A stretch of DNA of 64,000 nt from Octopus vulgaris. Taxonomy: Eukaryota. Numbering within the stretch: the stretch's first letter is position 1; each line of letters starts with the position of its first letter. This document shows, piece by piece, positions 25,215 to 56,955 of the stretch. The notes under the pieces are model-generated. The model was not told the DNA's origin, ran no database searches, and saw nothing but the letters and a program-made list of their open reading frames with translations. The DNA lies in the NCBI GenBank assembly GCA_951406725.2, contig OX597835.1, forward strand, positions 48,546,001 through 48,610,000, given 5' to 3'. The position numbers and the translations under genes were made by a program.

Positions 25215-25278
<64 letters not shown>

Positions 25279-25412
25279 CATATATATCCCACAAACACAT
25301 AAACTAACATATGCACATACACACAAATACATATATATATGCATATATATAAGTGTAATTATGTATAAAATATATCTGCATATATGTATCAATATGTTTA
25401 TGTATATATATG

Positions 25413-25467
<55 letters not shown>

Positions 25468-26715
25468 CTATATACATATATACATATACAAGCACAAACA
25501 CACATAGACGCGTGTTTATGGTGCGTGTATGTATACATGTGTGCATTTATGTATACACTATACATACATACATATGAATAGAGCGTGTACAGGTTTCCAG
25601 GTGTATACAGAAGCATAAACTTATATATTTATGTATATGTATGCATATATGTATATATAAATACATACATATGTGTGTGTGAGTGGGAAAATGGGAGGGA
25701 GGAAGAGAGATGGACTGAGCGATGCTTTGAGATAACGCGTATTCATACATACACGAAATGGTCGTTACAAAAGACTTTTTTTTTAAAATCTATTATCAGC
25801 GGTCTTTTGTGTATTGTTGTCATTACATGGGCTGCGGCGAATATAACGTGTGTATATGTATGTATGTACGTATGTATGTATGTATGTATGTATGTATGTA
25901 TGTTTGGATGGATGGATGGATGTATGCATGTATGTATGTATGTATGTATGTATGTATGTATTTATGTATGTATCTATGAATGTATATATGTATGTATGTA
26001 TGCATGTATGCATGTATGTATGTATGGATGGATGTATGCATGTATGTATGTATGTATGTATGTATGTATGTATGCATGTATGTATGTATGTATGGATGGA
26101 TGTATGCATGTATGTATGTATGTATGTATGTATGTATGTTTTTATTTTTATAACTCTCTGCCTATGTACAATATATATACACATCATAAATATATATATA
26201 AATATAGATATGTATATCTATATGTACACACACATATATATATACATATATATATATACTTACATACACAGACACACACACATATATATACACAACTTTT
26301 TATATGTATGTATACATACACATATATATATATATATACATAAACATACATACGTATATATTCTCGTATGTTATATAATATTCTTGCATTGGAATATTGC
26401 TGATATGCTCTATAGTGTGAGTGTGGTGTGTATCTCTATGTATATTCCGATATGCGTCTGGGAACATCTATACATGAATATACGTCTGTGTGTGTGTGTG
26501 TGTGTGTGTGCGATATTTACGTGAATGGGCTTCAACAGCTGTGCACGCGTGCGCACCTGCGTGAAGGTGTATAATGAGCAGCGATCATGTACTGGCTTCG
26601 TAACCATATACCTGCCTGTTCGTGTGCCTTCTTTCCCCCCCCCCCCCATCTCATTGTCTTGTCCCTTTCTCTTCTTTCCCCCTACGTCTATCTTTGTCAC
26701 AATCGTCTGTTTCAG

Positions 26716-26881
26716 ATTCAGCGGAGATATAAAAATACATCAAACCTCTTTCAATATGTCGTCGGCAGCTCGCAATCACGAAACACGGGAAATAATGACG
26801 CCATGTTAACTAACAAAGATTTCACAAGAATCGTAACAAAATTTTCGGTTATGTTATACGCACTGGCTTTCCCCTCCTGGG
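26716..26881 (+). CDS. Candidate internal exon of an unidentified host gene
   Basis: Pyrimidine-rich region then tttcag acceptor and G|gtaaat donor. Phase 0-1: IQRRYKNTSNLFQYVVGSSQSRNTGNNDAMLTNKDFTRIVTKFSVMLYALAFPSW. Confidence 0.4.
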
Positions 26882-27129
26882 GTAAATAAAACCAGTTGTT
26901 GACATGAAATTAACAACGGCAGCTATGTGAATGTGTTTACGCATGTGTGAGTGTGTGTGAGCGTGCGTATATGTGCGTGTGTGTGTGAGCGTGCGTATAT
27001 GTGCGTGTGTGTGTATGGGTGTGTGTATGGGTGTGTGTATGGGTGATTGATCATATAAATTCGCACTTCTCTCGCAGGAGTTTATTCCCAGAACATTGAT
27101 TACAGAAGATGAGTTATGTTAAGTATATA

Positions 27130-27227
<98 letters not shown>

Positions 27228-27487
27228 GACACAAATATCTATATCTATACACACACACATATATTCATATATATATATATATAAATACTCATATATGCAT
27301 ATATATATATATATGTATATATATACATATATACCTACGTATATAAGTATAAATATATATGGGTATATATATATATATAAGTATATAATGATATACGCAA
27401 CACATAAATACATATAAGAAAATACATACAAACACACTCACATACACACATATGTAATAGAGGAAGTGATATATATGTATATATATG

Positions 27488-27539
<52 letters not shown>

Positions 27540-28239
27540 TTATATGTATGTATGTATCTTTGTATGTATGTATGTATGTATGTATGTATGTATGTATGTA
27601 TGTATGTATGTATATAAGTATGTATGCATATATAATAAACGGAGTTGCAAAATTTCTTCGACAAGATTATTAGTAGACCATAGATGTCCTTATAGTTGTT
27701 GATTTTTTGGTGTTTTAGTGGTGCTTTGGTGTTGGTGTTGTTGTTGGTGGTGGTGGTGGAGGTGTAGGTTGTGATATGGCAACAATGGAGGTGGCAGCGG
27801 TGATGGTGGTGGTTGTGGTATGTGTGAATGTTTGCATATATGTTGGTATATTTATATCTACACACACACACACACACATACAAACACACACATATATATA
27901 TAGACATATATATATATATACGCATATATATACATATATTTACACACACACACACACGCATATATATATAAACACATATGTATATATACATACATAAATA
28001 CATATATATATATATGCATGTATGTATGTATATATACATAAATACATATATATATGTATGTATACATGCATACATGTATATATATATATGTATACACACA
28101 CACGTATATATATACATGCATATGCATATATGCATACACATATATCCCTCCATATTCACATGGAGGGTAACATATATGAAGGCAATAACAGAAGTTACAA
28201 CAAAAATATAAAGGCAAATCATGCGTAGAAATCAGCAGT

Positions 28240-28317
<78 letters not shown>

Positions 28318-28614
28318 TGTAGTAGTAGTAGCAGCAGCAGAAGCAGCATCGGCAATATATTCTCTATCTTCAATATCTTCATCATCATAGCTTCTGATGT
28401 TAGCACCACCATCATCATCATCACCACCACCATCATCATCATCACCACCACCATCATCATCATCACCACTATCATCATCATCATTACTATCGTTCGTATG
28501 GCGGCCGTAATTTACCTGAAGCTGTGCGTAGTTTTGACTATCGGATCGTTTGTTGTGCATGAAGCTGACAACGATGATGGCGATGATGATGATGATGATG
28601 GTGATGATGGTGAC

Positions 28615-28680
<66 letters not shown>

Positions 28681-28740
28681 AATGATGTTGATGATGATGA
28701 CGACGATGATGATGTTGATGATGATGATGATGGAAGGGAC

Positions 28741-28810
<70 letters not shown>

Positions 28811-28870
28811 GTGACGATGATGATGATGATGATGATGATGATGACGACGATGATGATGATGACGACGAGA
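28240..28870. repeat. Long (GTA)n, (CAT)n and (GAT)n trinucleotide arrays
   Basis: Seen directly. Source of the poly-D/H/S/M pseudo-ORFs. Confidence 0.95.
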
Positions 28871-29143
28871 ATGAGTAGAGAGCAAGATAGATAATGACGC
28901 GAATAGATGCGGCTACCAACACAGTCAACAACAATAATAACAATAATAACAGCAACAACAACAACAACAAATACACACACTGAACACAACTACAACAACA
29001 ACACCAACAATTACTTCCAGAATAGATGGAAAGAAAATATACGAGATTTACAACCAAAGATACGTTCTTGTGATAACGGATCGCACATGCGCACACACTA
29101 GGAATTGTCCATATATTTCTATATATATATAGATATTTATATG

Positions 29144-29205
<62 letters not shown>

Positions 29206-29218
29206 CAGGCATACATAT

Positions 29219-29260
<42 letters not shown>

Positions 29261-30200
29261 ATACATATACCTATACACACGCTCACGCACTCATATATAT
29301 ATGTATGTATATATATGTATATATATAGAGAGAGAGAGAGGGAGAGGGAGAGGGAGAGAAAGAAAGATTGAAAGACAGACCTAGGAAAGGAGAGAGAGAG
29401 AGAGAGAGGAAGAGGTAGAGAGATGAAGAAAAAAGCAGATAGGAATAGAAATATGGGGAAAAAAATTCATATCGTATTAAAAAGTATCCAAAAATCACAA
29501 AAAAGTAAATTCCCAAAAAATGAAGGCAAAACTAATAAAAAAAAAAGATGAGGAGAAAAAGCGTATGCAATGATGTTATGTATGTAATGAAGAGTAAGGA
29601 GAAGATATTAGGAGAGCATGATGGGTAATATTATAAGAATAGCGAGGACGGCTAGTCCTGGCAAACACCTGTATGTCTATATCGGTATACGTTGGAGAGT
29701 TGAAGTGGTGACTTGGGAGTCGATCGCCGAGTGAAATGATGGAAGGATAATAATTTGTGGTGAGGTAGTGTGTGTGGGGGGGGGTTTGGTGGTGGTGGTG
29801 GTTGTGAATGGACGAAATGAAAGGAAGGAGGTAGTGTGTAAGGGAAGGGGAGGGAATTATGATATACGTGTGTGGTTTTGCGATATAATGTGTGTGTGTA
29901 GTGTGTGTATAGTGTGATAGCGACATGAAAAGTGAAATATTGTATGTGTGTATATATATAAATATTCAGAGAGAGAGAGAGAGAGAAAGAGAGAGTGATA
30001 CACACATATATATATATATTTTAATATATATATATACATATATATATGCGTGTGTATGTATATATACACAATTATATACATATACATACACACACACATA
30101 TATGTATATATATGAATGATATATCTATGCGTATGAATATATAGCTACCTATATGTACACTATTTTTTTTCTTATTAAATTCGAAAAAATCTCCACACAC

Positions 30201-30235
30201 AGGCACTGAGTTTCAAGCAAACCTTCATCAGGCAA
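30201..30235 (-). ncRNA. Hammerhead relic
   Basis: Minus strand: ttgc CTGATGA agg-tttg-ctt GAAA ctcag T gcct. Canonical core and 3-bp stem II. Cleavage triplet and stem I are damaged. Confidence 0.4.
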
Positions 30236-30316
30236 TTCTGATAATACAGACTAGGTTGTGAAGATTTTTTCGGCTTTATACACTCACACGCACACACACA
30301 CACACATACACACACT

Positions 30317-30353
<37 letters not shown>

Positions 30354-30814
30354 GTATGTATGCATGTATGAATGTATGTATGTATGTATGTATGTATGTA
30401 TATATGTATGTATGTATGTGTATGTATGTATGTACGTATGTATATATATATATGTATATACACATATGTATGTATGTGTATGTTTATATATATGTATATA
30501 CATGTGGGTGTGTGTGTGTGTGGCCTAATGATTGGTGCTTTCGTTTCATTGTCCGTAATATTATGCGTATAATTTCCCCTGACGTGGTAAACGCGTTTGT
30601 CCTTGCGTAAGGCATTTGCTTTCTCTTTCTCGAAATGCGTGAAAAGCGTGAACATGTCTCTGTTCGTGATTGCTTCACCTTCGGCATATACCTCTGAGTC
30701 AAATATGGAGGAGTAGTGATGAGTGTTTGTCTGCTCGTCACTCATGTCGGCACCTAACATATCAAGCGAATGCACAGTATATACGTTACCCATTACGTCC
30801 ATACTCGTTTGCAG

Positions 30815-30870
30815 GTCTAAGAATTGAAATCACGACATTATGTTCGTGTGCCGATCACCTGAACCAGTAG
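30815..30870 (+). CDS. Candidate terminal coding exon
   Basis: tttgcag acceptor. The phase-1 start completes the Gly from exon 26716-26881 and reads (G)[17 protein letters not shown]. Confidence 0.25.
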
Positions 30871-30926
30871 CCCACGCATCAGCACCTCTTAATCTCTTTC
30901 TTTCTCTCTCTCTCTCTCTTTCTTTC

Positions 30927-30990
<64 letters not shown>

Positions 30991-30992
30991 TT

Positions 30993-31287
<295 letters not shown>

Positions 31288-31331
31288 CACATATATATAT
31301 ATGAGAAAGATATTAACAGTAGCCGCACGAC

Positions 31332-31539
31332 ATCGTGAAGTGTATTTGCCACCTAAATGTGGCTAACTCTTAAGGGTCGATGCTACTGTAGATTGTAGCC
31401 CCATGAAGACATCTCCGCCAGCTAGCTATTGACACATTATCTGTGCTAGATGGAGGAAATGTCTTCCTGAGGCTACACACTACAGTAGCATCGACTCTTA
31501 AGGGTAAGCCATATTTAGGTGACAACTATATTTCACGAT
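31332..31539. mobile_element. Fold-back / MITE-like palindromic element
   Basis: About 95-bp imperfect inverted arms 31332-31426 and 31445-31539 (ATCGTGAA..GTCGATGCTACTGTAG / CTACAGTAGCATCGAC..TTCACGAT). Confidence 0.85.
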
Positions 31540-31768
31540 ATATATATATATGAATTATATATATATATGCATATATGCATACGTATAAGTACATGCATCT
31601 ATACCTATATATATGCATATGTGGGCAGAGGACTTCACAAAACGTGTACAACAAATATGTACGAAGCACGAGTACATGGTACATGAATTATTCTTTCGAA
31701 CAACGAAAGACACAAATGGAAAACGAAACAAACAACATAAAGAACGACCCTTCATCAGTTGCTGGATG

Positions 31769-31769
<1 letters not shown>

Positions 31770-31836
<67 letters not shown>

Positions 31837-31841
31837 CAGAC

Positions 31842-31940
<99 letters not shown>

Positions 31941-31966
31941 AAGATAGATAGATAGATAGATAGATA
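31770..31966. repeat. (GATA)n microsatellite
   Basis: Seen directly. Confidence 0.95.
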
Positions 31967-32139
31967 CCTATCTATGTATCTATCTATTTCACTATTAGCG
32001 TCCATTGTAAGTCACTGGGTCATAATTATAGATATTATAGATATTAATTGCGAATGCCAAAATAAATTTAAGATTGCCAAAGAACGGGGAGAGGGAGAAG
32101 GGTGATTAAAGATTGACGTAGCTCTTAACTTTTTTTCTT

Positions 32140-32480
32140 TTATCATTATTTCAGTCATAAACCTGCGGCCAGGCTGGAGCACCGCCTTGAACAGTTTACT
32201 CTAGTCTTATTTTTTTCTGAAGGCCTGGTATTTATTCTGTCGCCCTCTTTTTGCTGAACCGCTATATTACGCGGACGTAAATGCACCAACGCCGACTGTG
32301 AAATAGTAGTGGGCGTGAAATGCACACATAACACGGGCCTGTACGTCTACGAAATCCACTCACAAGATATTATCAAAACCCGAGGCTATAGAAGTAAACA
32401 CTTGCCCAACAAGGTGCAACGTAGTGAAACTGAACCCTGAACCATGTGGCTGGGAAGGAGACTTCTTACCACACAGCCGC
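32140..32480 (-). mobile_element. SINE family A, diverged
   Basis: GCTGGAGCACCGCCTT..GAACCATGTGG..CTTACCACACAGCC, as in 801-1242. Confidence 0.8.
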
Positions 32481-32598
32481 TGACACTCGTCTCCTTTCTA
32501 TAATAACCAGGTCAGTATTCCGTCCTCTGCCCTCATCTGTCCATATTTCCTTTCAGATATCAATCCGACAGTCCCTACCTTTTCCCTATATTCCATCT

Positions 32599-32645
<47 letters not shown>

Positions 32646-33187
32646 TGTGTGTGTGCATGTTTCAGTGTACGTATATGTTTCTACGCTCGTGCGTGTGTGT
32701 GTGTGTGGCAATGTAGGTTGAAACCACCAGCAGTCAGTGGTCCAATATGTGCGGTTTTGTTACCGATATCTGTTTTAAACAAACAGAATCTAAAGTTTCT
32801 TTTAATATGAATGTTATCGACTTCCTCAAAATTTCTTTTTTTATGCTTTATTATTTTTACTTATAAAAAGAATAGGATCACTATCAATACAAATAGAAAT
32901 GATACGTGTGTGTGTGTGTGTGCATGAATATGTGTATGTATGCTTCTCTGTCTGTCTGTGTTTGTACATATACACACACACATATACATATGTAAACACA
33001 CACATGCATATTTTTGTGTATAAGTATGTGTGTACCTATGTAAGTAGTTCTGTGTGTATGCATGCGTGTATCTATGTAAGTATGTATTTATATACATGTT
33101 TTTTATATTAAAGCTGGAAAAATACCACAAAAATCTGGGGCACAGAATTTCACATTCGCCAAGTAATTGCGATCAAGTCTTGATCAC

Positions 33188-33230
33188 AAATGTCCGACGA
33201 ACGGGAACGTGAAACTCTAAGTAACAGTTT
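33188..33230 (+). ncRNA. Type I hammerhead ribozyme candidate with U4C core, in a short element ending at (TA)n near 33332
   Basis: aaatgt CCGACGA acg-ggaa-cgt GAAA ct-cta-ag TA aca(g)ttt. Stems I, II (GNRA loop) and III all pair. GUA triplet. Confidence 0.7.
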
Positions 33231-33330
33231 TTCGTAAGGTTTTCGCAGCCAAAATAGAAAACCATATTGCTCTAGCCTCGGTATTCGAGTACTAATTTTT
33301 CTACCTTGCTTTGCATTTATATACTAACTC

Positions 33331-33381
<51 letters not shown>

Positions 33382-33410
33382 GTGGAACTATGAATGTGTT
33401 ATTCTCTCTC

Positions 33411-33447
33411 TTTTCTGTTAAAGAACGTAGGTTCGAAATATCGAAGA
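33411..33447 (+). ncRNA. Hammerhead relic in a 90-bp insertion between (TA)n tracts
   Basis: tttt CTGTTAA a gaac-gtag-gttc GAAA TATC gaag. Same layout as the 63655 motif with a degenerate core. Confidence 0.45.
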
Positions 33448-33470
33448 TTTTTCCATTTTTCATTTTAACC

Positions 33471-33515
<45 letters not shown>

Positions 33516-33992
33516 CATGGGTTGCTTGTTTAAGAAATTTTCTTTTAAACTACTTGGTGTGGCGTTTTGTCTCAACTATTCGACACAATTTTCAAGTGTT
33601 TTCTACTACAGTCTCGGGGGAACCAATGCATTGTTGGTGAATTGAGAGATGGTAACTGTGTGTAAATTTACTATGTATGTGTGTGTGTGTTTGCCCGTGT
33701 TTGTATGTGTGTGTGTGTGCGTGCTTGTGTGTGTGTTTGTGTGTGTGTTTATCAAACTGCATATCATAAATATAGTTTCTTTATATCACCGTATTTTAGT
33801 GGCTTGACAAAACGTGCCCGATTGAATATGTACGATGCTTAAAATAAATACTTGGGCGGATTTGACTGGCAAAAGCTTTCTTAAGGCGGTGCCCCATCTT
33901 ATCTGTTTGTAATCCAGTAATCAAAATTAGTAAAAAAAAAAAAAGGTATATGTACCAACACACAGTTTCCAATTTCTATTAGTTACGACATT

Positions 33993-34695
33993 TGGCACAA
34001 GCACAGCAATTTCTGGGACGGGGTTGAGTCGATCACACCGAACCCCAGTGCTCAACTGGTTATTTTCTACCTCAGCATAATTCGAAATGAGAATGCCAAG
34101 ACGGCCGAAATGCGGCTGAGCACTTTGCGCTCCGTGCTAACCTTTCTCCCTTCTCGACGCCTTTAGCTTCTAATATATATTACATTCATTTATTTATCAA
34201 ACCATAAATTTTAGCAATGAGATACCAATATACATAAGCACAGGGATAACTCTGTGGTAATATGTTTGCTTACCGACCCCATGGTTCTGGGTTCAGACTC
34301 TCTACGTGACATCTTGGGCAAGTTTTTCTGCTATAGGTTCAGGCGGACCAAAACCATTTGAGTAGATTTGGCCGAAGGAAAATGAAAGAAGCACATCGTA
34401 TATGTGTGTGTGTTTGTGAGAATGTGTGCATATCTGTGTGTGTGTGACTGTGTGTGTGTGTATGTATGTCTGTTTAAGTCTGTATTTGTGTGTGTGTTCC
34501 CCGACACCGCTTGACAACCGATGTTGGTGTGTTTAAGTCCTCGTAACTTAGCAGTTTGTCAAAGTAGACCGATAGAATAAGTAACAGGCTTTAAAATAAG
34601 AAAATAAATTGTAGGGACGATTCATTCGACTAAAATGTTTCACGGTGGCACCCCAGCATGGCCGCAATTCAATGAGTGAAACAATTAAAAGGGAT
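33993..34695. mobile_element. SINE family B (minus, about 33993-34163) followed by SINE family A (plus, about 34240-34695)
   Basis: Similarity to 2376-2589 and to the reverse complement of 801-1242. Confidence 0.75.
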
Positions 34696-34819
34696 TCTGT
34701 CACTGTAGAATTAGGTTGTAGCCCCAGTAATACGCAATCGATCATTGAGAATTTTTAGAGAATATCATTTCGTTCAGATTAGATGTATTTCGATGAGTTC
34801 TGGGAGATTTTTTCGACGC

Positions 34820-34928
<109 letters not shown>

Positions 34929-36866
34929 TCTTTGGGCCCTAAACAGCGCGTAGTTCTCGTAAGATACTTTTAAATCTCACAGTGTCCATGTTTTTACCAG
35001 CTTCGAAGACAGCCATAAATGAGCAGAGAGGAAGACATGTTTGAAAAAGAGAGAGTGAGTGATTGAGAGAAAGGGAGCGGTGGTAGGAGGACAACAAAAT
35101 ACCACTGGATCTCGTTCTTGGATTGGTAGATCACATGAGATTCCGAAAGGAAGTTAAGATATAATTGGTCTACGAAGGGATTGAACACAAATCGCAGAGA
35201 GCTGGAATGGATATGCAGGTTGTGCTACCTTGCTCTCATGCAAATCTACCGACGAATATTTATAGACAGACATGAATACACAAATCATATTTTCTATGAC
35301 TTGCATTTGTCCTTCGAGATAGGTAATTAGTTGATGTATTCACGTGCCCCAGAGTACTAATTATTGTTGTTGATATTTCTAAAATACATCAATAAAACTC
35401 GAAAATGGTGAAAGAACACTGCGTGTATTACATGCTAAGGTTACCGTGTTCGCCGGAAAAATTTGACAAATGAAATCCACATAGATCTACAAATTTCTAG
35501 ACACGCTATTTGGTGCAGCTGTCTGAATAATAACTGCGATATAAACTAATGCACTCAACAGAGGTTAATGAAATGATATCATAGAAGTATAACATGTAAT
35601 ATTGCTAATTAATAACATTCATTTCTGCCTAATCGATCGTAATGAACTAGGAATATCTAATGTAAGCACAATTTGATTGAGTTTTGCTCGTTTAAGATGA
35701 AGATCAATGGATGCATTTACAGCATGTCGTTGCGTTTGGCGTCATCGAAGCAAATAAACAGAGAAGATCAATCAATTTTGATTTGCTGATTGAGTCATAT
35801 AGTGGTCAAGAAGTTTAAATCCTGAAGCCACCTGGTGGTGGGTTCAACCGCTTCCAAGTTGTACTTTGAGTAAGTGTCATGTAGTATAGCTTCCCGTTCA
35901 TTAGCGGCATTTGAGTAATAACTAATTGGAAAGCCTGCGGGGACGGGATGGGGGTTACGGTTTAACCCTGGAAGGGTCAGTGCTATTTGGGCAAGAACAA
36001 CTTGGATATTTGGGGCTTGATCAACCTGGCAGGGGTTACTTGTCACATTGTCACATTGTTGGAAGATATGAAACGCTCAGCGATGCCTGGAAACGTCGTT
36101 GATTTTGTGTCCTGAGGGATGACAGGATGACGTTTGATAAAGCTACACACACACACATACACACACAGTTATGTATATATGTGTCTGTGTGTGTGTATTT
36201 GTATAGATATGTATATACTGCAAATATATGATACTATATACAAACAAAATATATAAACAAATATACGTACACATACAGCGGGAGAGATAGATATAGACAT
36301 GCGTTTATGACTATGTTTAAGTTTGATGGATGGATGGATGGATGGATGGAAATACATGGGTTAGTGTCCAGGCACGCAGTTGGCCCACTAGGAGTGGGAG
36401 GCCCCTCTCTTGTTGTCATAACACTTCTCTAGGAGAGGGAAATTATGAGAGAAAACCTGCGACACTCACAATATTCGGTGATGTAGACATTTTCGAGTTT
36501 ATATTTTCCATGTTCAGAGAATGGGATTGGATTTGTGCAAATCTCCCCCACCCCCACCGCACCACCCTAAAATATCATTATACACAGGTTCCTTTTGAAA
36601 AAGAAGGTAAGAGCTATCACAAAAACGGCTGGTCACAGCCTTCGCATATCTGGGACTTAAGATCAGGCTGAAGGTGGCTTTATTGAAAAACATTATAGAA
36701 AAGGTTTATTTTTATCCTCATAGCATTTTTTGATAAATAAAGTTATTATCTGTTATTATATATCTGTTTCTTTTTTATAAACATCTCTCCTCAAATATCT
36801 TTCGGACCCTGAATATATAGATATATATGAATGAATGTATGTATTTATGTATGTATGGTTGGCTGA

Positions 36867-36906
<40 letters not shown>

Positions 36907-36911
36907 ATCTA

Positions 36912-36955
<44 letters not shown>

Positions 36956-37834
36956 TGTATACATATACATATAGGTAAGCGTGTGTGTGTGTGAGAGAGA
37001 GAGAGTGTGTGTGTTTGTGAACGTCTGTGTGTCTGTGTGTGAACGTCTGTGTGTCTGTGTGTGTACACGTATTATATATTTATACATATTACCGTAGATG
37101 TGCGTATATAGTTCTGATACACTAGCATGAGATATATATTTTCACTTGGATATTATATTCGTCACGATATCCACATATATACACAATACAAATATGAACG
37201 CCATGTGCAAGTCTTCAATACATACTTACGCACTTACGCGCATACACATACACATGCGTATATACATAAGTGCATGCAAATATCTACATACATATGTGTA
37301 TGTGTGTTTACGTGTATACACACACACATACTCATATAATCACAAATACATAAATGTGCTTCTTACAGAGAGGTCTGTTATAATTTCATGGTTATGCTTG
37401 AGACAAACTGAGATACCACCGAAGGACCACCCTGTTTGATGGAGGTCTGGCGCCCTGGAATACCTTCTTTGAGTCTGTTCTCTATTCAGTTGGGTTTTCT
37501 TGTATTTGGCTCGCTCTCAAGAATTCGCTTCTATTCTTCGCCTTGAAGTGTTTGGCGCTATAAAAAAAATTAAATAACCATATGACGGACGATATGAAGT
37601 CAATAGACGGATTATGTCAAGGACATGTGGCAAAACGGAGTTTGGAAGGGAGCGGGGAAGGGGCTTTTGTTTTTTATATTCTCTATGGTGGTTTTTATAT
37701 TTTGTTTCTATATATTTTAGCTTTTCTGTTTTGTTATTCTTTTTTTCTTTTTATTTTTTAGGGTTGGGTTATGATTAGAACTGGCATATGATATAAAGTA
37801 TACCGAGAGCAAATATACTTACGGAGAATATATG

Positions 37835-37925
<91 letters not shown>

Positions 37926-38065
37926 ATGTATGTATGTATGTATGTATATATGTATATATATATACATGTATATATATACACATAAAAGCTTTTATACATA
38001 TATATTATATATATGTATATATTGCGTATATGTATATATATACATATATACATACATGTATATGT

Positions 38066-38102
<37 letters not shown>

Positions 38103-38238
38103 CTCACGCGCATAAAATTGCATATCTATTACCTATAAATTAATTTGTGTATGTATATAAATATAGAAAAAGTATACGTATGTGTGTATATAGATAGATA
38201 GATTGATAACAAATAGATAGATATATAAATAGATAGAC

Positions 38239-38298
<60 letters not shown>

Positions 38299-38339
38299 TA
38301 GATTGATAACTAAATAGATAGATATATAAATAGATAGAC

Positions 38340-38395
<56 letters not shown>

Positions 38396-38421
38396 TGATA
38401 ACTAAATAGATAGATATATAA

Positions 38422-38491
<70 letters not shown>

Positions 38492-38657
38492 TAGAAAGCT
38501 ATATAGATAGACAGACAGACAGACAGATAAATAGAAAGACAGAATTACACATTGGTGTATACATATACATGTATGATTAACATATGTGTAGATATGTTTT
38601 TGTAATTGAATGTATATTCATATACAAGCATATACAGCTACACAGCTATACAAACAT

Positions 38658-38702
<45 letters not shown>

Positions 38703-38705
38703 CAT

Positions 38706-38796
<91 letters not shown>

Positions 38797-38797
<1 letters not shown>

Positions 38798-38985
38798 CAA
38801 ATAGGACAAGAACACAAACATCCAGACAGTTAGGTGATACAAAAAAGGGACAACAAATCATCCAGATACACGATACAAAAAAAAGCAAGGACGGGTCATT
38901 CGAAGTTTTCTTGCCTCCATTGAGTTCCAGATTATCTTTGCAAATTCGGCTGGTTATACTTGAGATTTCTCCAATCTGGTCAAAA
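38797..38985 (-). mobile_element. Short TA-anchored interspersed repeat, second copy at 40931-41050
   Basis: Both copies begin right after (TA)n and share GGGACAACAAA..ATCCAGATACA..AAGGACGGGTCATTCG..GAGTTCCAG..TTCGGCTGGTTATACT. Confidence 0.7.
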
Positions 38986-39409
38986 AGGCGAATATTACAC
39001 AAATACAAATAACAGGACATAACAACAGGTGTCTATAGAGTAAGGACGAACTGTAAGGCCTTACAGCAGATATACAAGATTTCACAGGTACAGGGAGGAA
39101 TATAGATTTTGCACGGACGACGGCCTAACCAAGAAAGAAAGGTCAGGTTTGGCCGAACAACAGTCACATGGGGAGAGAAGAGAAAGAGAGGTAGAGGCAG
39201 AGGGACAGAAGAAATAAGGATGGGTGAGAAAAGATGACAGGGATATATTGAAGTAAAAGGAGGAGGAAAAGTGTGCATGAAGAGAAGGCAAGGAAATGTG
39301 AGAGAGGGGGAACGAAAGAATGAAAGAATAAAAGAATAGTGTCGTACAAGATTCAGACAAATATATATTTACATATAAGAGAGCAAAGTGTACGTACGCC
39401 GCTGTACAT

Positions 39410-39524
<115 letters not shown>

Positions 39525-39536
39525 TACAGATGAGGA

Positions 39537-40222
39537 GTGAAATATAATTAATTTAATAAAATTAATAAATTTCACCTAGTAGTTTTTTCGGTATGGAAAT
39601 GACCATATTCGGTAAGGATCATATATAATTATAATAAAGGGTTAATTGCAACAAGTTGCTTAAACCACATACCGAAAATATTAGAAATAGCAGCCAAATA
39701 GGTTACCATTACTACTACTAGAAAAATAAGTCTCCCCAAACAAACAGAATTTGTAACCCGTATGTGGTAAAGAGAAAGAAGACAACGTAATCACAGCCTA
39801 CTTGGATCAATTATGGACGAATTCGTTTCTGGATTAGAATCGAAAATTCATTTCCTTATCAACATAATATTTCCTATAAATCTAGAAATGCTAGGAAAAA
39901 ACTCACCCATGACATCAACCCGACCAGGCGACATCGAACGATATAACAGTTTACTAGCATCTCCACCTTTATATAGACAGGCGAATTCGTATCTACCTCC
40001 AATATTTCACCATGTGAGTTACAAAAACAGTACCACCGAAACGAAGTTTCGCAGATTCATTGTATGGGAGTACAATGTATTCGATACACATAAGGGGTGA
40101 AATATAATTAATTTAATAAAATTAATAAATTTCACCTAGTAGTTTTTTCGGTATGGAAATGACCGTATTCGGTAAGGATTATATATAATTATAATAAAAG
40201 GTTAATTGCAACAAGTTCCTTA
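39537..40222. mobile_element. Non-coding partial-tandem element: 560-bp unit with about 126-bp direct terminal repeats
   Basis: 39537-39662 is repeated at 40097-40222 with about 4 substitutions. Flanked by (TA)n and (CA)n. No meaningful ORF. Confidence 0.8.
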
Positions 40223-40733
40223 TACACACACACACAAACACACACACACATATATTTATATATATATATGTATGTATGTACATGTATGTATGTATGTACA
40301 GTGGCGTACGTACACTTTGGTCTCTTAGATGTAAGTATATATTTGTCTGTACGACACTATTCTTTTATTCTTTCCTTCTTTCTGTCAGCCCTTTCACGCT
40401 TACTTCGTTCTTTACTTTACTCGTAAGTATGTATGTGTGTGTGTGTGTGTGAGCGTCTGTGTGTCTGTGTGTGTACGCGTATTATATATTTATACATATT
40501 ACCGTAGATGTGCCTATATAGTTGTGATACACTAGCATAAGATATATATTTATTCGTATAACTTTTATTTCTGTAACTTATCTGTATTTGAATTTTTATC
40601 TGAATTATGGCTTGTACTGTAGAGTCCAGCGAAACTAAACATACCTAATTTAAACAAACTTATTTTGCAAATATTTATGGGATTTCAAAATTAAAATATA
40701 GTTTATGGTATTGAACGTTGATAAAGTTATAAG

Positions 40734-40828
40734 GGCCTGATGATTGGGGTGGCATCTTGAGAGGGGTTCCAGGGAAACACGGAGCGGCTTAGGAACCCAA
40801 GGATGTACCTCATGAAACACGTGTAGCC
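40734..40828 (+). ncRNA. Type I hammerhead ribozyme, canonical core, long stem II
   Basis: ggc CTGATGA [t tggggt g gcatctt gagag gggttcc ... ggaaccc a aggatgt acctca t] GAAA cacgtg TA gcc. Palindromic stem III ACACGTGT. Predicted cleavage after 40825. Confidence 0.85.
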
Positions 40829-41093
40829 AAGGAATAAAACAGTAGGTATTTAAAATTAAAATAAAAAATTATTTTTATTTGCTGAGAAGTTGGGGTATAC
40901 TATCTCTATATTAATATATATATATATATAAATTCAAAATGGGACAACAAAACATCCAGATACAAAGAAAACAAGGACGGGTCATTCGGAATTTTCTTTC
41001 CTCAGTCGAGTTCCAGTTTATCTTTGTAATTTCGGCTGGTTATACTCGAGAAACCTACCACATCCAACTAAGTTTCCCGTATGTTAACTATGC

Positions 41094-41173
<80 letters not shown>

Positions 41174-41229
41174 ACATTATTGGTGAATTGAAGAAATGGA
41201 GCTGAACGCAGATTGAACAGAAATCGTTT

Positions 41230-41323
41230 TATTTCATTCTACACGTGTTTCGAAAGGCACAAATTACCAAAATCCGATGGAATAATGGGACCATATTGTG
41301 TCTTTCTCTTCAGGAAGAAAATA
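41230..41323 (-). ncRNA. Type I hammerhead ribozyme, canonical core, inside a 265-bp insertion (41174-41440) in (TA)n
   Basis: Minus strand: tattttcttc CTGAAGA gaaagacacaa ... ttgtgcctttc GAAA cacgtg TA gaatgaaata. 10 of 11 bp in stem II and palindromic stem III. Predicted cleavage between 41240 and 41239. Confidence 0.88.
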
Positions 41324-41438
41324 GGAAATCCGTTGGAAAAACAAAAACAGAAACAGAAACTGCTGTGATTTTTGCTACTAAGGTATCGGTTAAACTTTTG
41401 ATTAATCTACTACAAGATTATTCATCTTTCTATTTCAC

Positions 41439-41482
<44 letters not shown>

Positions 41483-42104
41483 CGTTAACATACGGTAAAT
41501 TAAGTTGGGCGTGCTAGGTTTCTGTAGGAAGCCTAGGAAACTTGAAGTCATTTGGAGACTGATCAAACTGTAGTTTATCTTCTTTTTCTTCTTCACTATC
41601 ACCACCTTCTTTTTCTTCCCTTTCTTCCCTTTCTCCCTCTCTCTCTCTTTCTCTGTCCCCTTTCTGTGTTCCCTTGTCGTTTTCTTATTAAAACTGAATT
41701 TGGCGATCAATTATATATATGCATGCACGTTTGGAATATATATATATATATATATATATATGCGTGTGTATGTGTGTATACAATGGCAGAAAAATAAGTA
41801 AGAGAAATACATTCTAAGTAGTAAAATATATCTTCTTTCATTCGCTAGAGAAATCTTTTCATAACGAAGACGGATTTAATTGAAGAAAATTTATTTGAAA
41901 GATTAATCAATTATCAGACACTTCAGAAGAATCAAAATGCATGCGTGCGTATGGAGGTGCGTAAGTGCGTAGATACGTACAGGCGTACAGGCTTCGTGAG
42001 CAGGGGAGGCCCCAGAAAATGAATGCATTGTGACCAGCCATGTATAAGAGAATCAGATTGTCTGTTGAATATAATGAGATATGTGCGTGTGTGAGTGTGT
42101 GTTT

Positions 42105-42170
<66 letters not shown>

Positions 42171-42412
42171 ATGTCATTGTGTCTATATTTTCCCCCAGCA
42201 CCGCTTGACAACCAGTGTTAGTCTGTTTAGGTCCGCGTATATTAGCAGTTCGGCAAAAGTAAACGCGAGAATATGCTTTATAGAAAAAAAATGTACTGGG
42301 ATCGATTCATTTGACTAAAAGTTCTTTAAGGAAGTGCTCCAGCATGGCCACAGGCTAATGATTGACAAAAATAAAAATAAAAATATAAAAAGACACACAT
42401 GCATATGTGTAT

Positions 42413-42451
<39 letters not shown>

Positions 42452-42599
42452 CACATACATATACACATATCTAAATGTGTATGCATGCATTTGCATATAT
42501 GCGCATGCGTTTGTGCTTGAGTGACTTTGTGTCTTTTTGTCTTAACATCACACGATAGACGTAATTATGTATCACCTTCATAGAAGAATTGTTCGTGTT

Positions 42600-43985
42600 T
42601 CCAGTCTTACGTGCGAGCGAGGTAGTTCCATGTGGAATATGGCCTGGAATATGACCTTGCTTTCAAAATGTTGAGTGATATATCCCCGATATTATTTTTA
42701 AAAGATACATGTTCATCACGGACTTCCATTAACGAATGTCCAGGACGGTGCCGGGTTTTGAACGCTTTATCCCGGCCGGTTTCTGGACAGTTTATATGCA
42801 CATGCAGCAATATAAATAGCCTCTCATTTGAATTTCTACTTGGCGATTATTTCTGCAAGTTCGTTTGTTATTTGTGTGCGATATAAACCATTCAAAAATT
42901 TCCATTGCCTATTTCTTGCCCATTTATCATCATTAATAGTTTGTGTTTTCTTCCTGCTTCTTTAATACGAATAATATTTTGCTTCAAACCGGTTTCAGTT
43001 GCTGGCAACCTTTTTGTGTTGAAAGCTTTTCTGTAGTTGGATTCACTCTTATTATTACAGTTCTTGTTTCGTTGTCCTTTTTTCAGTTAATATGCTTCAC
43101 TATCGTTTCTTTAATATTACATGCACGTTCTGTTGAAAATTGCTTCGCAATATTTCATTTTAAAGCAGTTTGCTTTGAGTTTTACAGTTTTAACTGTCAC
43201 ATGCTTCGTTAACATTCTACTCATAATTAATATTTCATTGCTTTAACAAACGTTATAGTTTTAGTTATTTTTTTCTTTTCAACATAACAAAAGCTAAGAT
43301 TATATTGCTATTAGATATGTCGGTTTGCTTCGCTTCATTCTCCTTTTCTTTATAATAATATTTGATTGTGCAACTCCATGTTATATATAAATAAACAACA
43401 CACTTCTTTCGTTCGGTTCGCATCAAAAGTGTGACAACGAGATGGGCTTAAGTTTTCACTACACATAAACGTAAATAGGATAACGCTATTTACGATGATG
43501 TTGTGCTTAGTAACAAATACTATATGTATAAAAAATGCATCAGAGTTTGTGTATATATATCAAAATTTATCGGTAGTATTTTGGTGGTATTGTTTCATTG
43601 CTTTATCGTGCTTTTAACATGTATCTTCTGTCCATTTTATATGAAAGCCATATATTTAGACTAAATTTCCTGCCTGAACATGATCAAGTTTCCTCGAGTA
43701 TATGTTATCTGTTTATTGCAAACATACGCCGCGATATCAATATTGCTTCCATCATCAAACCTCTTTTTCTGATGAATACTGCAAAGTATGGAAGTAATTA
43801 TTGTTAAGGTCTTTCTATTTAGCATTGCATTATGCCTATTGAAATAGCTTTTTGCTTTAAGTCAAGTTGAATTTACGACAAAGTTGTATTTCTTTGCCCA
43901 CTATAACAGTTGCAATTGAGAAATTTAAACTTCAATAGTCAAATTCGCTTAGAAGGATTTATGAATTTTACATATTTATTTAGGC
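42600..43985 (-). pseudogene. Old, scrambled relic of a Penelope-like element related to the one at 54571
   Basis: Ordered minus-strand peptides VKFINPSK (cf. CRLINPAK), NRKTL (ARKTL), AIFNR..NIKETIVKH (KLFNR..NFKNIINH), AFKTRH (NFKTRF) and NILKARSY (KILARCKPY). Many stops. Confidence 0.45.
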
Positions 43986-44252
43986 ACCGCCGGTATTTGA
44001 ACACTGTGTAGTCGGTATGCTTTCCGTTGCATTAACAGGAATTTCGGTATCGGCTTAATGTATCTCTGAATAATTTTCAGTTCTTCGCAAATCTAGAAAT
44101 ACAGCACAGGACTATATACAGCTATTGGGCGTGTTTATATGTAAGTGTTAGTATGTGTGTGAGTGTGTGTGTGTCCGCGCGCGCGTGCGTGTGCCTATGG
44201 GTAGGGGTGCTTATTCATGTGCATGTCTCTCTCTCTCTATCTCTATATATAT

Positions 44253-48999: not shown

Positions 49000-49423
49000 A
49001 GTAGTAGTAGTAGTATTAGTATTAGTATTATCGCACAGATTCTAACGCTGGAGATGTACTACAGTGTCAGTTGTTCACTACCAATGAACTAAGGTAACAC
49101 CTCTTACTTTTCGAGCACCTTCCATAGTATTCGAGCTGTTCCAAGCAGTGCTGTTTTCTGCAAGTGCTCCACCCTTATTGCAGCCCGTATTTGTTCCACG
49201 TATTTATCGAGATTTTTGCTCACAGTTCTCGGGGCTCCGACAATTATTGGTACTACTGCTACCTTTTTCATCGACCACAACTGCTTAACTTCCCAAGCTA
49301 ACCTGTCATATCTTTCAACTTTTCTTTCTTCTTTATCGCATACATTGTTGTTAGCTGGGCATGCTATATCTATGATACAGCATAGTTTGTTTGCTTTCTC
49401 AATTAAGACTATGTCTGGCATTC

Positions 49424-49424
<1 letters not shown>
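48841..49424 (-). mobile_element. Two head-to-tail 3' fragments of a third RLE LINE family in (TTA)n: 49031-49424 (RLE + 3'UTR) and 48841-48911 (3'UTR only)
   Basis: RMPDIVLIEK..IIDIACP..RKVERYDRL..VPIIVGA..LQKTALLGTARIL*. The 70-bp UTR (TCTAACGCTGGAGATGTACTACAGTGTCAG) occurs twice. Confidence 0.88.
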
Positions 49425-49495
<71 letters not shown>

Positions 49496-50527
49496 AAAAT
49501 TGGCGTAACTCTTCACGAAAGTAAACAGGCAATAAGAAAAGCGCGATACGTTTTGTAATAAATTGTTTATTTAACCGTTATCTCAACAATATCTCAACAA
49601 ATCGTCTGTCTTCAGATTCAAAATGTAAAATGAAAACAGCCGCAGATACTCAGAAATTCAAAAGATATCCGAGGAATTCGTGCATTCCCATTTTAGTCCT
49701 TCATCATCAGTTTTCAATTTTCTAACTCGAAAAAGGGAACAGAAAAAAACAAGAAAAAGAAAAAAAAAAGAAAAAAGAATATTTAATCGAACAATTTTTG
49801 TAAATGCGATGAGATTCACCTGCCATTTTACTCATTTCTCCAGGGCGTGCAGTAAGTAATTCACAAATATATTTTATCCTCATGCATTTTGAGGAGCGAA
49901 AGTGTAGCAGATTCAGAACATTTTCTGGGAATATGCAGTATCCGTTGTTCCTCAAAATTGCAGCCGTTTGATGTAAAATATTCAGCAAGTTTTGTCGAAC
50001 TACTGCTATTGTGCCCATACTTGAGCCCATTGAATCTTTTGTTTTATTGTTCTGTTGTACAAATAGCTTAAGTTCTGCTGTGTACACCAAATGGGAATCT
50101 TTACACGTCCTTCTTTCCGTGTAGATCATAACATTTCTGTTATGATTCCTAATGGAATTGACTTGATTCATGTTGTTGCACAACGAACCAGCTCCATGAT
50201 GCATCCTGGTCTTTTAAATTGTTAGATTCACAGTGGAACTGACCATATGATTCCATGCGGAGTAGTGATTCTTATTGGCTATTCGTGATCGGAATTCATT
50301 AGCACTCTTAATTCCATTTTGTATAAATCGTTTTGCATTAGCAGCATACTGTAGAAGATCTTTGCTGTTTACCAAATGCTCTGTCATATTTCTTCTTTCG
50401 TTCCTGCAATTTAAGGGAGATTTGACCGGTATATCAAACGAATCAAAGACCATGTAGGAAGGATCTTCATTGGTTCTTCACATTGAAGTAGTGCTATATG
50501 TGTGTCTAGTGTCTGTGTAAACACATG

Positions 50528-51302: not shown

Positions 51303-51361
<59 letters not shown>

Positions 51362-51390
51362 ATACAATATGTTACATTACTCGGTAGTCA

Positions 51391-51453
51391 AGATAAAACT
51401 CTGAGTTTCAGATGCCGAAGTGGAAATCCACAACACCATCTCTTCGGTTATCT
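51391..51453 (-). ncRNA. Variant hammerhead in the inverted pLTR
   Basis: Reverse complement of 54303-54365. Confidence 0.65.
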
Positions 51454-51648
51454 GGCTATTTGAAAACGTTATGAAAAAATACCGTTAAAAATGAAGGGAA
51501 ATTACTCTGTTATAACTCTGCTTTGCCTGCGTACTTATACATCGCTCGCATTTTTCGTCATAAAAATTATATAAAAATACATAAAAAATATATAAAAATA
51601 TATAAAAATATATAAAATCTTCTTGGGACATAACACAGAAAGCATGTT

Positions 51649-52309
51649 CTATCCGTTTTCTTTAGGGGACCAAAAACGTAACAGAAATTTAGTCACATGT
51701 GGGCATGATCCGAAAAGTTCTGTCCTTGTATTTAGACATGTGGTAGGGTCTAAGCTGCTTTTCCAGATAAGCCATCTCTCCATGTCGCATAAACCGCACC
51801 TTCCGCTGCCGTTAGTATAGGGCTTACATCTGGCCAAAATCTTCCATTGTATGTTATAATCGACACCTTTATCTCTTAAAGACCAAATATGATTGGATAA
51901 TTGTGTCGCTTTTCTTTTGTTCCAGTGCCTAAAGCTCAAAGTGTGGTTATTGAACCTGGTCTTGAAATTACCCTCTGTCAGGCCCACGTATTTCTTCGTC
52001 AAAACGGTGTCTTTAGTGGTTATAGAGTTTACGGTAGCCTCATATATGATGGTCTTGGACATGCAAGCTCCATTTAGCGGGCACAATTCTTTATTCCTGC
52101 ATGAACAGCTGTTTTCTTCTTGTGTTTTTTGTATGTTATGATTGATTATGTTTTTAAAATTGGTAGTTGAACTAAAACTAATTTTTAAATTGTGTCTATT
52201 GAAGAGTTTCCTATAAGCATGGTTAACTGGAAAATGTCTATCTATCAGTGCTAGGAAATATTTACCTATATTGAAGGCCACCTCGGGTGAGTAAGGGGGC
52301 GTAAACCAG
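51649..52309 (-). pseudogene. Inverted partial PLE ORF (Cys linker + GIY-YIG)
   Basis: Translation matches the C-terminal part of the 708-aa ORF. Confidence 0.9.
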
Positions 52310-54107
52310 CACTTTTTTCGGATAAAACCAAGAACTTATACCTGGTAGATAACAGCAAATACACACAACTCTTACACAACAGCATCATTAATAATTATAC
52401 TAAAGCTAGGGCACAGACATATAACGAAATTAATAAAGAAGCTAGCGTCATCGCCGCTAAACTTAAATTAGATAAAAAAATAGAAACCCTCCCCAAAAAG
52501 AGGCCTTTATTACTATTAAAGACCACAAAGAAAACTTCCTTTCCAATCCTAAATGTAGGCTTATCAACCCAGCCAAATCAGAACTAGGGATTATTAGCAA
52601 AGAAATTTTAGATAAAATAAATACGAAAATTAAGAGCGATACTAGGCTAGTGCAATGGTCCAATAGTATAGAAGTCGTAGACTGGTTTAAAGCTATTAAG
52701 AATAAGAAAAAAGCGAGGTTTACACAATTCGATATTGTTGATTTTTATGCCTCTATCTCTAAAGAACTGCTAGATAAAGCCCTAATCTTCGCTAGTGACT
52801 TCATAGAAATTAGTACCAATGATAAGGATATAATCTTCCATGCTAGAAAGACATTACTTTTCAGTGAGAATGCAAAGTGGGTAAAAAACACCGACACGGA
52901 GGGCGCTTTCGATGTGAGCATGGGTTCATATGATGGGGCAGGCATCTGTGATCTAATTGGACTCTTTCTCCTAGATACCTTCAGTAAGACATTCCCTAAC
53001 GTACATTTCGCCATCTACAAAGATGATGCCCTCGCCTTAACAGCTAATACAAATGGACCAGCACAAGATCGTTTTAGGAAGGATATTATCCAGTTAATGA
53101 AACACTTCGGACTTAGTATAACTATAGACACTAACCTGACGGTTGTCAATTTCTTAGACGTTTCCTTAGATCTTAATAATAATATTTATAAGCCTTATAG
53201 GAAGCCCAATGATAGACTAAGTTATATTAATGTAGGTTCATGCCATCCCCCTATAGTATTCAAAAATTTAGTTAAAAATATTAGTAAGAGGATTTCTAGC
53301 CTCTCATCTAATGAGGACATCTTCAATAGCGTTGCCCCAGTTTATAATAAAGCTTTAAAAGATAGTGGTTTTAGCGAAAAAATAAAATATACACCTATCA
53401 CCAGCCCAACAATAAGGAAAAGGAATAATAGAAATAGGAAGGTCATCTGGTTTACGCCCCCTTACTCACCCGAGGTGGCCTTCAATATAGGTAAATATTT
53501 CCTAGCACTGATAGATAGACATTTTCCAGTTAACCATGCTTATAGGAAACTCTTCAATAGACACAATTTAAAAATTAGTTTTAGTTCAACTACCAATTTT
53601 AAAAACATAATCAATCATAACATACAAAAAACACAAGAAGAAAACAGCTGTTCATGCAGGAATAAAGAATTGTGCCCGCTAAATGGAGCTTGCATGTCCA
53701 AGACCATCATATATGAGGCTACCGTAAACTCTATAACCACTAAAGACACCGTTTTGACGAAGAAATACGTGGGCCTGACAGAGGGTAATTTCAAGACCAG
53801 GTTCAATAACCACACTTTGAGCTTTAGGCACTGGAACAAAAGAAAAGCGACACAATTATCCAATCATATTTGGTCTTTAAGAGATAAAGGTGTCGATTAT
53901 AACATACAATGGAAGATTTTGGCCAGATGTAAGCCCTATACTAACGGCAGCGGAAGGTGCGGTTTATGCGACATGGAGAGATGGCTTATCTGGAAAAGCA
54001 GCTTAGACCCTACCACATGTCTAAATACAAGGACAGAACCTTTCGGATCATGCCCACATGTGACTAAATTTCTGTTACGTTTTTGGTCCCCTAAAGAAAA
54101 CGGATAG
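52308..54107 (+). pseudogene. 5'-truncated PLE ORF copy
   Basis: Near-identical to 54897-56697, with a 1-nt C deletion near 52490 and two substitutions I could see (SEK/SEN, TEP/TEL). Confidence 0.92.
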
Positions 54108-54302
54108 AACATGCTTTCTGTGTTATGTCCCAAGAAGATTTTATATATTTTTATATATTTTTATATATTTTTTATGTATTTTTATATAATTTTTATGACG
54201 AAAAATGCGAGCGATGTATAAGTACGCAGGCAAAGCAGAGTTATAACAGAGTAATTTCCCTTCATTTTTAACGGTATTTTTTCATAACGTTTTCAAATAG
54301 CC

Positions 54303-54365
54303 AGATAACCGAAGAGATGGTGTTGTGGATTTCCACTTCGGCATCTGAAACTCAGAGTTTTATCT
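54303..54365 (+). ncRNA. Variant type I hammerhead in the PLE terminal repeat
   Basis: agataa CCGAAGA gatg..(gtgg-attt-ccac)..catc t GAAA ctc-a-gag T T ttatct. 6-bp stem I, near-palindromic stem III, GUU triplet, U4C core and an extra U before GAAA. Confidence 0.65.
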
Positions 54366-54570
54366 TGACTACCGAGTAATGTAACATATTGTATAGATAA
54401 ATTTCCTCTATTTACATAATATTGAGGTCTCTTTCTTTCTTTTGTTATCTTACCGTTTTATCAATAAATCACCTCCCGGACGACGTTATTCTCAACTAAG
54501 AGCTAATACGACCTTTTTGGGATTATCGCCTAACATCGGTTGAGGACTCTCACAAACAAAAGAATCTAAT

Positions 54571-56697: not shown

Positions 56698-56892
56698 AAC
56701 ATGCTTTCTGTGTTATGTCCCAAGAAGATTTTATATATTTTTATATATTTTTATATATTTTTTATGTATTTTTATATAATTTTTATGACGAAAAATGCGA
56801 GCGATGTATAAGTACGCAGGCAAAGCAGAGTTATAACAGAGTAATTTCCCTTCATTTTTAACGGTATTTTTTCATAACGTTTTCAAATAGCC

Positions 56893-56955
56893 AGATAACC
56901 GAAGAGATGGTGTTGTGGATTTCCACTTCGGCATCTGAAACTCAGAGTTTTATCT
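56893..56955 (+). ncRNA. Variant hammerhead in the 3' pLTR
   Basis: Identical to 54303-54365, 2590 nt downstream. Confidence 0.65.

Follow-up and report, generated by a model that had tools for sequence, protein, structure and literature searches.

Introduction

Hammerhead ribozymes are found in Penelope-like retrotransposons (PLEs) and in non-LTR retrozymes, which are non-autonomous, tandemly arranged, form circular RNAs and derive from the pLTRs of PLEs. Dimeric cleavage of hammerheads is covered in a review (PMC6765202), and where stem III consists of one pair closed by a palindromic tetraloop, cleavage depends on the dimer (PMC7229834). Two departures from the usual sequence are on record: U-U in place of G10.1-C11.1 is a tolerated natural variant, and U4C is reported to lower in vitro activity yet permit viroid infectivity (PMC3088659). 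Pairs of hammerheads on opposite strands, 100-700 bp apart, have already been described (PMC4209133), and in one lizard PLE the element's protein was needed for cleavage, which insertion in vitro did not require (PMC11167929). Hydra elements favour (TA)n targets.

Here we describe two hammerhead motifs, HH1 and HH2, that lie tail-to-tail in a 64-kb stretch of DNA, which we call the window. Their central arm, stem II, has two to three times the length that it has in the related elements used for comparison. Whereas the ribozyme class, the palindrome, the dimer model and opposite-strand pairs are known, the long stem II, conserved within the family in the case of HH1, is the feature for which we found no earlier account in animal PLEs.

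Results

Two hammerhead folds in the window

A descriptor scan of the 64 kb for type I hammerhead folds with CTGANGA...GAAA...GTA found two and no more, HH1 on the plus strand and HH2 on the minus strand (Table 1), with cleavage sites 415 nt apart. An earlier note, made from this DNA, had reported two hammerheads with full cores and GUA triplets about 400 bp apart that share a palindromic stem III; the scan found both, and ACACGTGT stands in each. Both have CUGANGA, GAAA and NUH in type I order. The core is closed by a stem I of 3 bp (plus 6), a stem II base of 7 bp (HH1) or 5 bp (HH2), and a stem III of either 1 bp with a tetraloop or a dimer duplex. Within the window, GAAACACGTGTA is present at HH1 and HH2 only. 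One hundred block-wise dinucleotide shuffles of the window gave a mean of 0.01 type I folds, with a maximum of 1. Core-pattern scans of viral and metagenome contigs returned 11 and 10 chance matches, respectively; none of these 21 loci had at least 3 bp in both stem I and stem II, as both window motifs have, and the flank pattern gave 0 matches. By sequence and fold, HH1 and HH2 are real type I hammerhead motifs, with self-cleavage predicted mainly for dimers within one family. A third CTGAGGA, at 41005 on the minus strand within the repeat between the two motifs, was considered as a hammerhead and rejected, because the paralog of that repeat at 38842-38965 lacks the core.

Neither motif matched Rfam at the gathering score, and no hammerhead family was among the 23 matches in the window at E <= 5, which are microsatellite-driven miRNA and snoRNA matches. 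Rfam likely misses HH1 and HH2 because their stem II is long. The two motifs had also been called unrelated, which is an overstatement: from GAAAC through AATAAAAC, 23 of 27 letters agree (85%), and both have a two-part stem I of the same design, in which a small internal loop separates 3 bp from 6 bp.

Table 1. Features of the HH1-HH2 locus (window positions)
Feature	Position	Strand	Details
HH1 repeat copy, likely 5'-truncated PLE 3' end	40540..40912	+	contig coverage; ends at (TA)n
HH1 type I hammerhead	40727..40837	+	descriptor scan and pairing; core 40737-43 and 40814-16; predicted cleavage after A40825 (A17)
HH1 stem I	outer 40727-32/40832-37, inner 40734-36/40826-28	+	pairing
HH1 stem II	40744..40813	+	70 nt; U-U base, helices of 7, 6 and 7 bp, then distal helix
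HH1 palindromic stem III, ACACGTGT	40817..40824	+	monomer: A-U, C-G, tetraloop ACGU; dimer: 8-nt duplex
(TA)n run at HH1 3' end, likely target	40914..40929	.	sequence
Very-high-copy repeat between HH1 and HH2	40930..41097	.	unrelated to both, no hammerhead; second copy 38842-38965, 82%
(CA)n(TA)n run at HH2 3' end	41097..41172	.	sequence
HH2 repeat copy, likely the 3' end of a PLE	41173..41441	-	microsatellites both sides; boundaries by sequence inspection
AATAAAACGAT 11-mer	41223..41233	-	6 nt past HH2 cleavage site; sole occurrence in window, either strand
HH2 type I hammerhead	41230..41323	-	descriptor scan; core 41313-07; predicted cleavage after A41240 (A17)
HH2 stem I	within 41230..41323	-	3 bp, C/U mismatch, 6 bp
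HH2 stem II	41306-41252	-	55 nt; G10.1-C11.1 present
HH2 stem III, ACACGTGT	41248-41241	-	descriptor scan

Stem II of HH1 is maintained in its repeat family

Stem II of HH1 folds at -26.1 kcal/mol (z -2.76), and 4 of 200 shuffles were as good. Its base is U10.1-U11.1, not the canonical G-C, and its three proximal helices are fully paired (20/20). The distal helix has 4 of 6 pairs in the window copy and 6 of 6 with the majority letters of the family, and the same counts apply to the outer part of stem I (majority letters at 40832-33). With the majority letters the stem II energy gains little (-27.1 kcal/mol), and a bulge-shifted subfamily stands at -24.4 kcal/mol.

The family was followed in contigs from four runs (three organisms), of which 2820 (X1), 3210 (X4), 1926 (X5) and 170 (X14) aligned on 40500-41095. 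Family contigs cover about 40540-40899, with almost none upstream (one contig, from X4) and loose ends before 40549, which describes a dispersed unit of about 360 nt with a variable 5' end. Upstream of 40549, just before the point where the window copy starts, the loose ends carry a T-rich run ending in TTTAG that resembles a 3' splice site; introns can occur in the pLTRs of PLEs. Summed contig depth on the HH1 core and 3' flank reached 27,000-44,000 in X1 and 19,000-30,000 in X4, against 33-75 per listed contig, and is not a copy number. Depth there is about 2-14 times higher than on stem II, which suggests further subfamilies that share the palindrome.

Among 40 of the 76 variant rows, none fell in the HH1 core or in stem III and 16 fell in stem II; the variants are unphased, and alignment at 80% likeness biases toward conservation. 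Of the eight common stem II variants, three lie at unpaired positions (40759, 40763, 40799) and one preserves a wobble (40756); those at 40751-52 form an A-U pair as a bulge moves, and those at 40785 and 40788 bring back pairs that are lost in the window copy. In one contig (X14 record 10, assigned by depth), 40756T occurs with 40802A, a change from C-G to U-A. Rare variants break terminal pairs of stem II (40798, 40800, and 40802 when alone). The earlier note would be refuted by a stem II pairing that family copies do not conserve; for HH1 the common variants spare or restore that pairing. Since these variants keep or improve the pairing of stems I and II, the long stem II of HH1 is a family trait, of which the window copy is a slightly decayed example. 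One contig of X14, which may be an RNA run, spans the HH1 cut site but is uninformative on strand or cleavage.

For HH2 the case is different. Stem II had been put at about 70 nt for HH1, which stands, and at 54 nt for HH2, where we measure 55 nt; the several sub-helices attributed to both are present in HH1, whereas in HH2 only the proximal 5+5 bp are convincing (-10.1 kcal/mol, z -0.74, 40 of 200 shuffles as good).

Long stem II among related elements

That both arms far exceed those of minimal PLE hammerheads is confirmed, as 70 and 55 nt stand against a helix II of 4-8 bp (PMC4209133). In all 23 comparison-locus hammerheads stem II measures 11-31 nt. In host-contaminated assemblies, a pattern with a 10-nt stem III gave 0 matches for gaps of 35-65 nt versus 31 for gaps of 8-34 nt; a looser pattern with gaps of 30-60 gave 23 matches, which is the control level. 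Our literature search turned up no account of hammerheads with such a long arm in PLEs of animals or of cephalopods, though Lunse et al. 2017 may bear on the matter.

The palindromic stem III and its partners

As a hairpin within one RNA, ACACGTGT would form A15.1-U16.1, one C-G pair and the tetraloop ACGU, at a computed +2.4 kcal/mol, versus -10.3 kcal/mol for the 8-nt duplex between two RNAs. The proposal that a self-complementary stem III leads to dimeric cleavage agrees with the published model (PMC4209133, PMC7229834, Fig. S8 legend of PMC3088659). From topology, GAAA of one RNA in a double hammerhead would pair with GUH (here GUA) of the other, with the 3' strands swapped; the two RNAs then have to build stem I, or failing that stem II, between them. 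Between HH1 and HH2, stem I provides 1 contiguous core pair in either direction versus 3 per cognate pair, and a swapped stem II 0-1 bp at its base versus 5-7 bp. On these counts the heterodimers between families that the common palindrome had been expected to allow are not supported and are predicted not to form. The shared palindrome would thus be necessary but insufficient, and stem I would set the family specificity. Our search of the literature on hammerhead heterodimers and on the stem I geometry of double hammerheads found nothing relevant.

Shared palindromes are in fact ordinary. Canonical retrozyme-like hammerheads, too, typically have a palindromic stem III of 8 nt, and 11 of 15 matches in one assembly (G003) read ACAGCTGT. 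As for the view that any transcript through the locus meets one of the motifs, HH1 and HH2 do lie on opposite strands, but they are very unlikely to work together as one unit that cuts whatever is transcribed here; no single transcript carries both. With opposite strands and a single copy per strand, HH1 and HH2 are probably inert at this locus.

An intact PLE and other elements in the window

The window is animal DNA, rich in AT and in microsatellites, and contains remnants of LINEs and PLEs. At 51354-57055 it holds a young, intact Hydra-type PLE whose 717-codon open frame (54544-56697) carries the Hydra-clade set of motifs RWK, DKT, CxCX5C, CxxC and CxH. This element is accompanied by two further copies, one partial and in tandem, the other inverted and 5'-truncated; the repeats are 99.7-100% identical, and the element's hammerhead lies 102 nt before (TA)n. 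The protein is 52% identical to its closest database relative, and by eye it resembles Hydra-1_Obim, which suggests that the DNA is from an octopod. Hammerhead-like motifs with CCGA for CUGA (U4C) occur at 56899 (+), 54309 (+), 51447 (-), 63685 (-) and 33194 (+); they span three separate elements, including all three copies of the young PLE (stem II 31 nt, -13.7 kcal/mol). Two broken non-LTR (RT) elements stand in tandem at 9733-12362 and 13486-16042; at 49104-49577 a similar element is represented by a C-terminal fragment.

Relation to Hydra-type PLEs

With the protein family of the window PLE, 15 Hydra-like loci were found, apparently host DNA inside prokaryote assemblies. In seven of them a hammerhead follows 92-203 nt past the ORF match, and its stem III is a palindrome or close to one. 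Hydra-type PLEs and dozens of hammerheads occur in several GTDB assemblies of bacteria that live with animals (L022-L036, G003), again apparently host DNA. A covariance model built from nine Hydra-locus hammerheads scored HH2 at 26.1 bits (E 3e-4) and HH1 at 20.6 bits (E 0.014), the top two of 3 matches in 64 kb, while missing the window's own PLE hammerhead with its CCGA core. A model from seven retrozyme-like hammerheads, which is narrow (one assembly, effective 2.8 sequences), matched neither. This comparison leans, and does no more than lean, toward the Hydra type. AATAAAACGAT, which follows HH2, also follows 3 of 23 distinct comparison hammerheads in Hydra-type loci, a post hoc observation in which all three belong to one assembly.

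No Hydra ORF fragment was found by tblastn with 120 proteins within 10 kb of HH1 or HH2, as expected for truncated copies, and no contig linking the HH1 family to an ORF was seen in the four runs. A Hydra protein had no match in viral contigs. An origin from Naiad was considered and set aside, as the motif gave 0 matches in the supplement of Naiad, Chlamys and Hydra consensus sequences, where line wraps may hide one. No head-to-tail tandem units were found: the window has one motif per strand, and no back-joint of HH1 appeared in the four runs.

Surroundings of the pair

A (TA)n run begins 88 nt past the cleavage site of HH1 and 66 nt past that of HH2. Both motifs thus have (TA)n within 110 nt downstream, as have 15% of the positions in the window. 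With 53 (TA)n clusters in the window, target choice alone does not explain the 415-nt proximity, which has a chance of 1.6% for two uniform points. One comparison locus (L024) has the same layout as HH1 and HH2, with the ends of two different families tail-to-tail at a distance of about 240 nt and (TA)n between them; the comparison loci were selected by the presence of a Hydra ORF, which favours clusters. The repeat in the middle reaches a summed contig depth of up to 0.67-1.1 million (X1/X4), 15-35 times that of the HH1 core. This repeat is short and has an A-rich edge, and a 45-nt piece of it is inverted at 41479-41523, so that HH2 lies within an 84% inverted pair. With (TA)n past their ends, their rank in the Hydra-locus model and this unrelated high-copy repeat between them, HH1 and HH2 are likely independent 3'-end remnants, and their proximity likely reflects independent insertions beside (TA)n.

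Discussion

We consider it probable that HH1 and HH2 are hammerheads from the 3' ends (pLTRs) of two Hydra-type PLE families that are related yet distinct, present here as truncated insertions, and that their RNAs would act mainly as dimers within a family. The Hydra-clade origin is likely from the anatomy of the motifs, their flanks and the covariance model. The genomic copies themselves are probably inert remnants, and HH1 is visibly decayed.

The main rival to an origin from Hydra-type PLE ends, in our judgement an unlikely one, is that the motifs are solo monomers of non-LTR retrozymes whose dimeric cleavage takes place in arrays elsewhere. The unit of about 360 nt falls within the 170-400 nt range of retrozyme monomers, solo retrozymes have been defined in a 2026 preprint, neither motif has an ORF nearby, and axolotl retrozymes combine a one-pair stem III and palindromic tetraloop with a U-U base of stem II (PMC7229834). 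However, the four runs, whose contigs are short and filtered, show no joint between the end and the start of the HH1 unit, and the loose ends upstream of HH1 are unlike the end of the unit. The (TA)n tail, the AATAAAACGAT flank and the model scores also lean to Hydra PLE ends. The long arm itself might be a neutral by-product, in which sequence gained in loop II folded back on itself and left the motifs vestigial. Loop II is free in length for catalysis once the core forms, the distal part of HH2 folds no better than chance, and PLE hammerhead mutants were without effect on insertion in vitro (PMC11167929). Yet all 20 pairs of the proximal HH1 helices are formed and are spared by common variants, and the extension occurs in both of two diverged families. 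We consider this neutral reading highly improbable.

We give scarcely any credence to a reading of the shared palindrome as a pairing code, by which HH1 and HH2 would be active as heterodimers and the pair would be a unit that cuts any transcript of the locus. The identical 8 nt, with a duplex at -10.3 kcal/mol, the distance of 415 nt and the large excess of contigs over the HH1 core and 3' flank relative to its stem II, which points to the palindrome in further subfamilies, would suit such a code. Against it, stem I between HH1 and HH2 has 1 bp each way and the swapped stem II 0-1 bp; the two lie on opposite strands with an unrelated repeat and two microsatellites between them; the HH1 copy has pair-breaking changes; and the sharing of palindromes within one genome is ordinary.

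If HH1 and HH2 are indeed Hydra-type PLE ends, a head-to-tail PLE transcript would bring together two copies of the same family, which would pair their palindromes, swap 3' strands and be cut after GUA, releasing unit-length RNA. As the monomer stem III, with one C-G pair and a palindromic tetraloop, is predicted to be unstable, cleavage would occur mainly in such tandem dimers, and the sequence of stem I would make it specific to the family. The element's protein may assist in cutting the precursor to unit length. The long stem II would be an extension outside the core that is either tolerated or selected; we propose that it most likely serves as a surface for RT-EN binding or folding, or as a docking site for the internal loop of stem I.

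A wider scheme, tentative and on balance doubtful, would have the Hydra-type PLEs of this lineage carry a subclass of long-arm hammerheads that is invisible to Rfam and to short-loop descriptors. In it, the conserved multi-helix stem II of 55-70 nt and the two-part stem I would form a protein-gated switch bound by RT-EN; through the palindrome, common to many subfamilies, unrelated copies would kiss but not cleave and would thereby damp one another, stem I serving as the password of the family. If the long arm is general, such genomes hold more hammerheads than have been counted, and some PLEs scored as having no hammerhead may have one. It would also give a handle on the role of PLE hammerheads and on protein-assisted cleavage (PMC11167929).

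Among described systems, the hammerheads of Hydra-clade PLEs (Craig et al. 2021, PMC8557442) are like HH1 and HH2 in being type I, in having a U...U or G...C base of stem II, and in placing a palindromic or near-palindromic stem III of the ACAC..GTGT kind just before a (TA)n end. File S2 of that paper contains 'ctgatgat ... tgaa' (U...U base) with a stem III 'acac a gtgt' and a base 'tgaggta/tacctta' close to HH1. They differ in stem II, which across the 26 Hydra rows counted by eye reaches about 26 nt at the longest, compared with 70 and 55 nt here; in HH1 and HH2, moreover, stem III has no unpaired centre, and no ORF is attached. The minimal and variant PLE hammerheads of Cervera & de la Pena 2014 (PMC4209133) share the palindromic helix III, the dimer model and AU-rich flanks, and like HH1 and HH2 they are mostly solo copies from truncated PLEs and form opposite-strand pairs 100-700 bp apart. 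However, their helix II has 4-8 bp and a short loop, and helix I of HH1 and HH2 adds a second segment of 6 bp.

The newt and axolotl retrozyme hammerheads (PMC7229834) share the one-pair stem III with a palindromic tetraloop and are weak as monomers and better as dimers, and Amex2 has U-U at the base of stem II, as does HH1. In contrast to the HH1-HH2 locus, which has no array, these amphibian retrozymes form tandem arrays of 330-350 bp, with a short stem II and canonical contacts between loops 1 and 2. A precedent for a long arm in PLEs comes from PLE-X1_sMoe of a spike moss (File S2 of PMC8557442), whose stem II region of about 54 nt is flagged as non-canonical; this PLE-X is a plant element, EN-minus and rDNA-targeting, with stems unlike those of HH1 and HH2.
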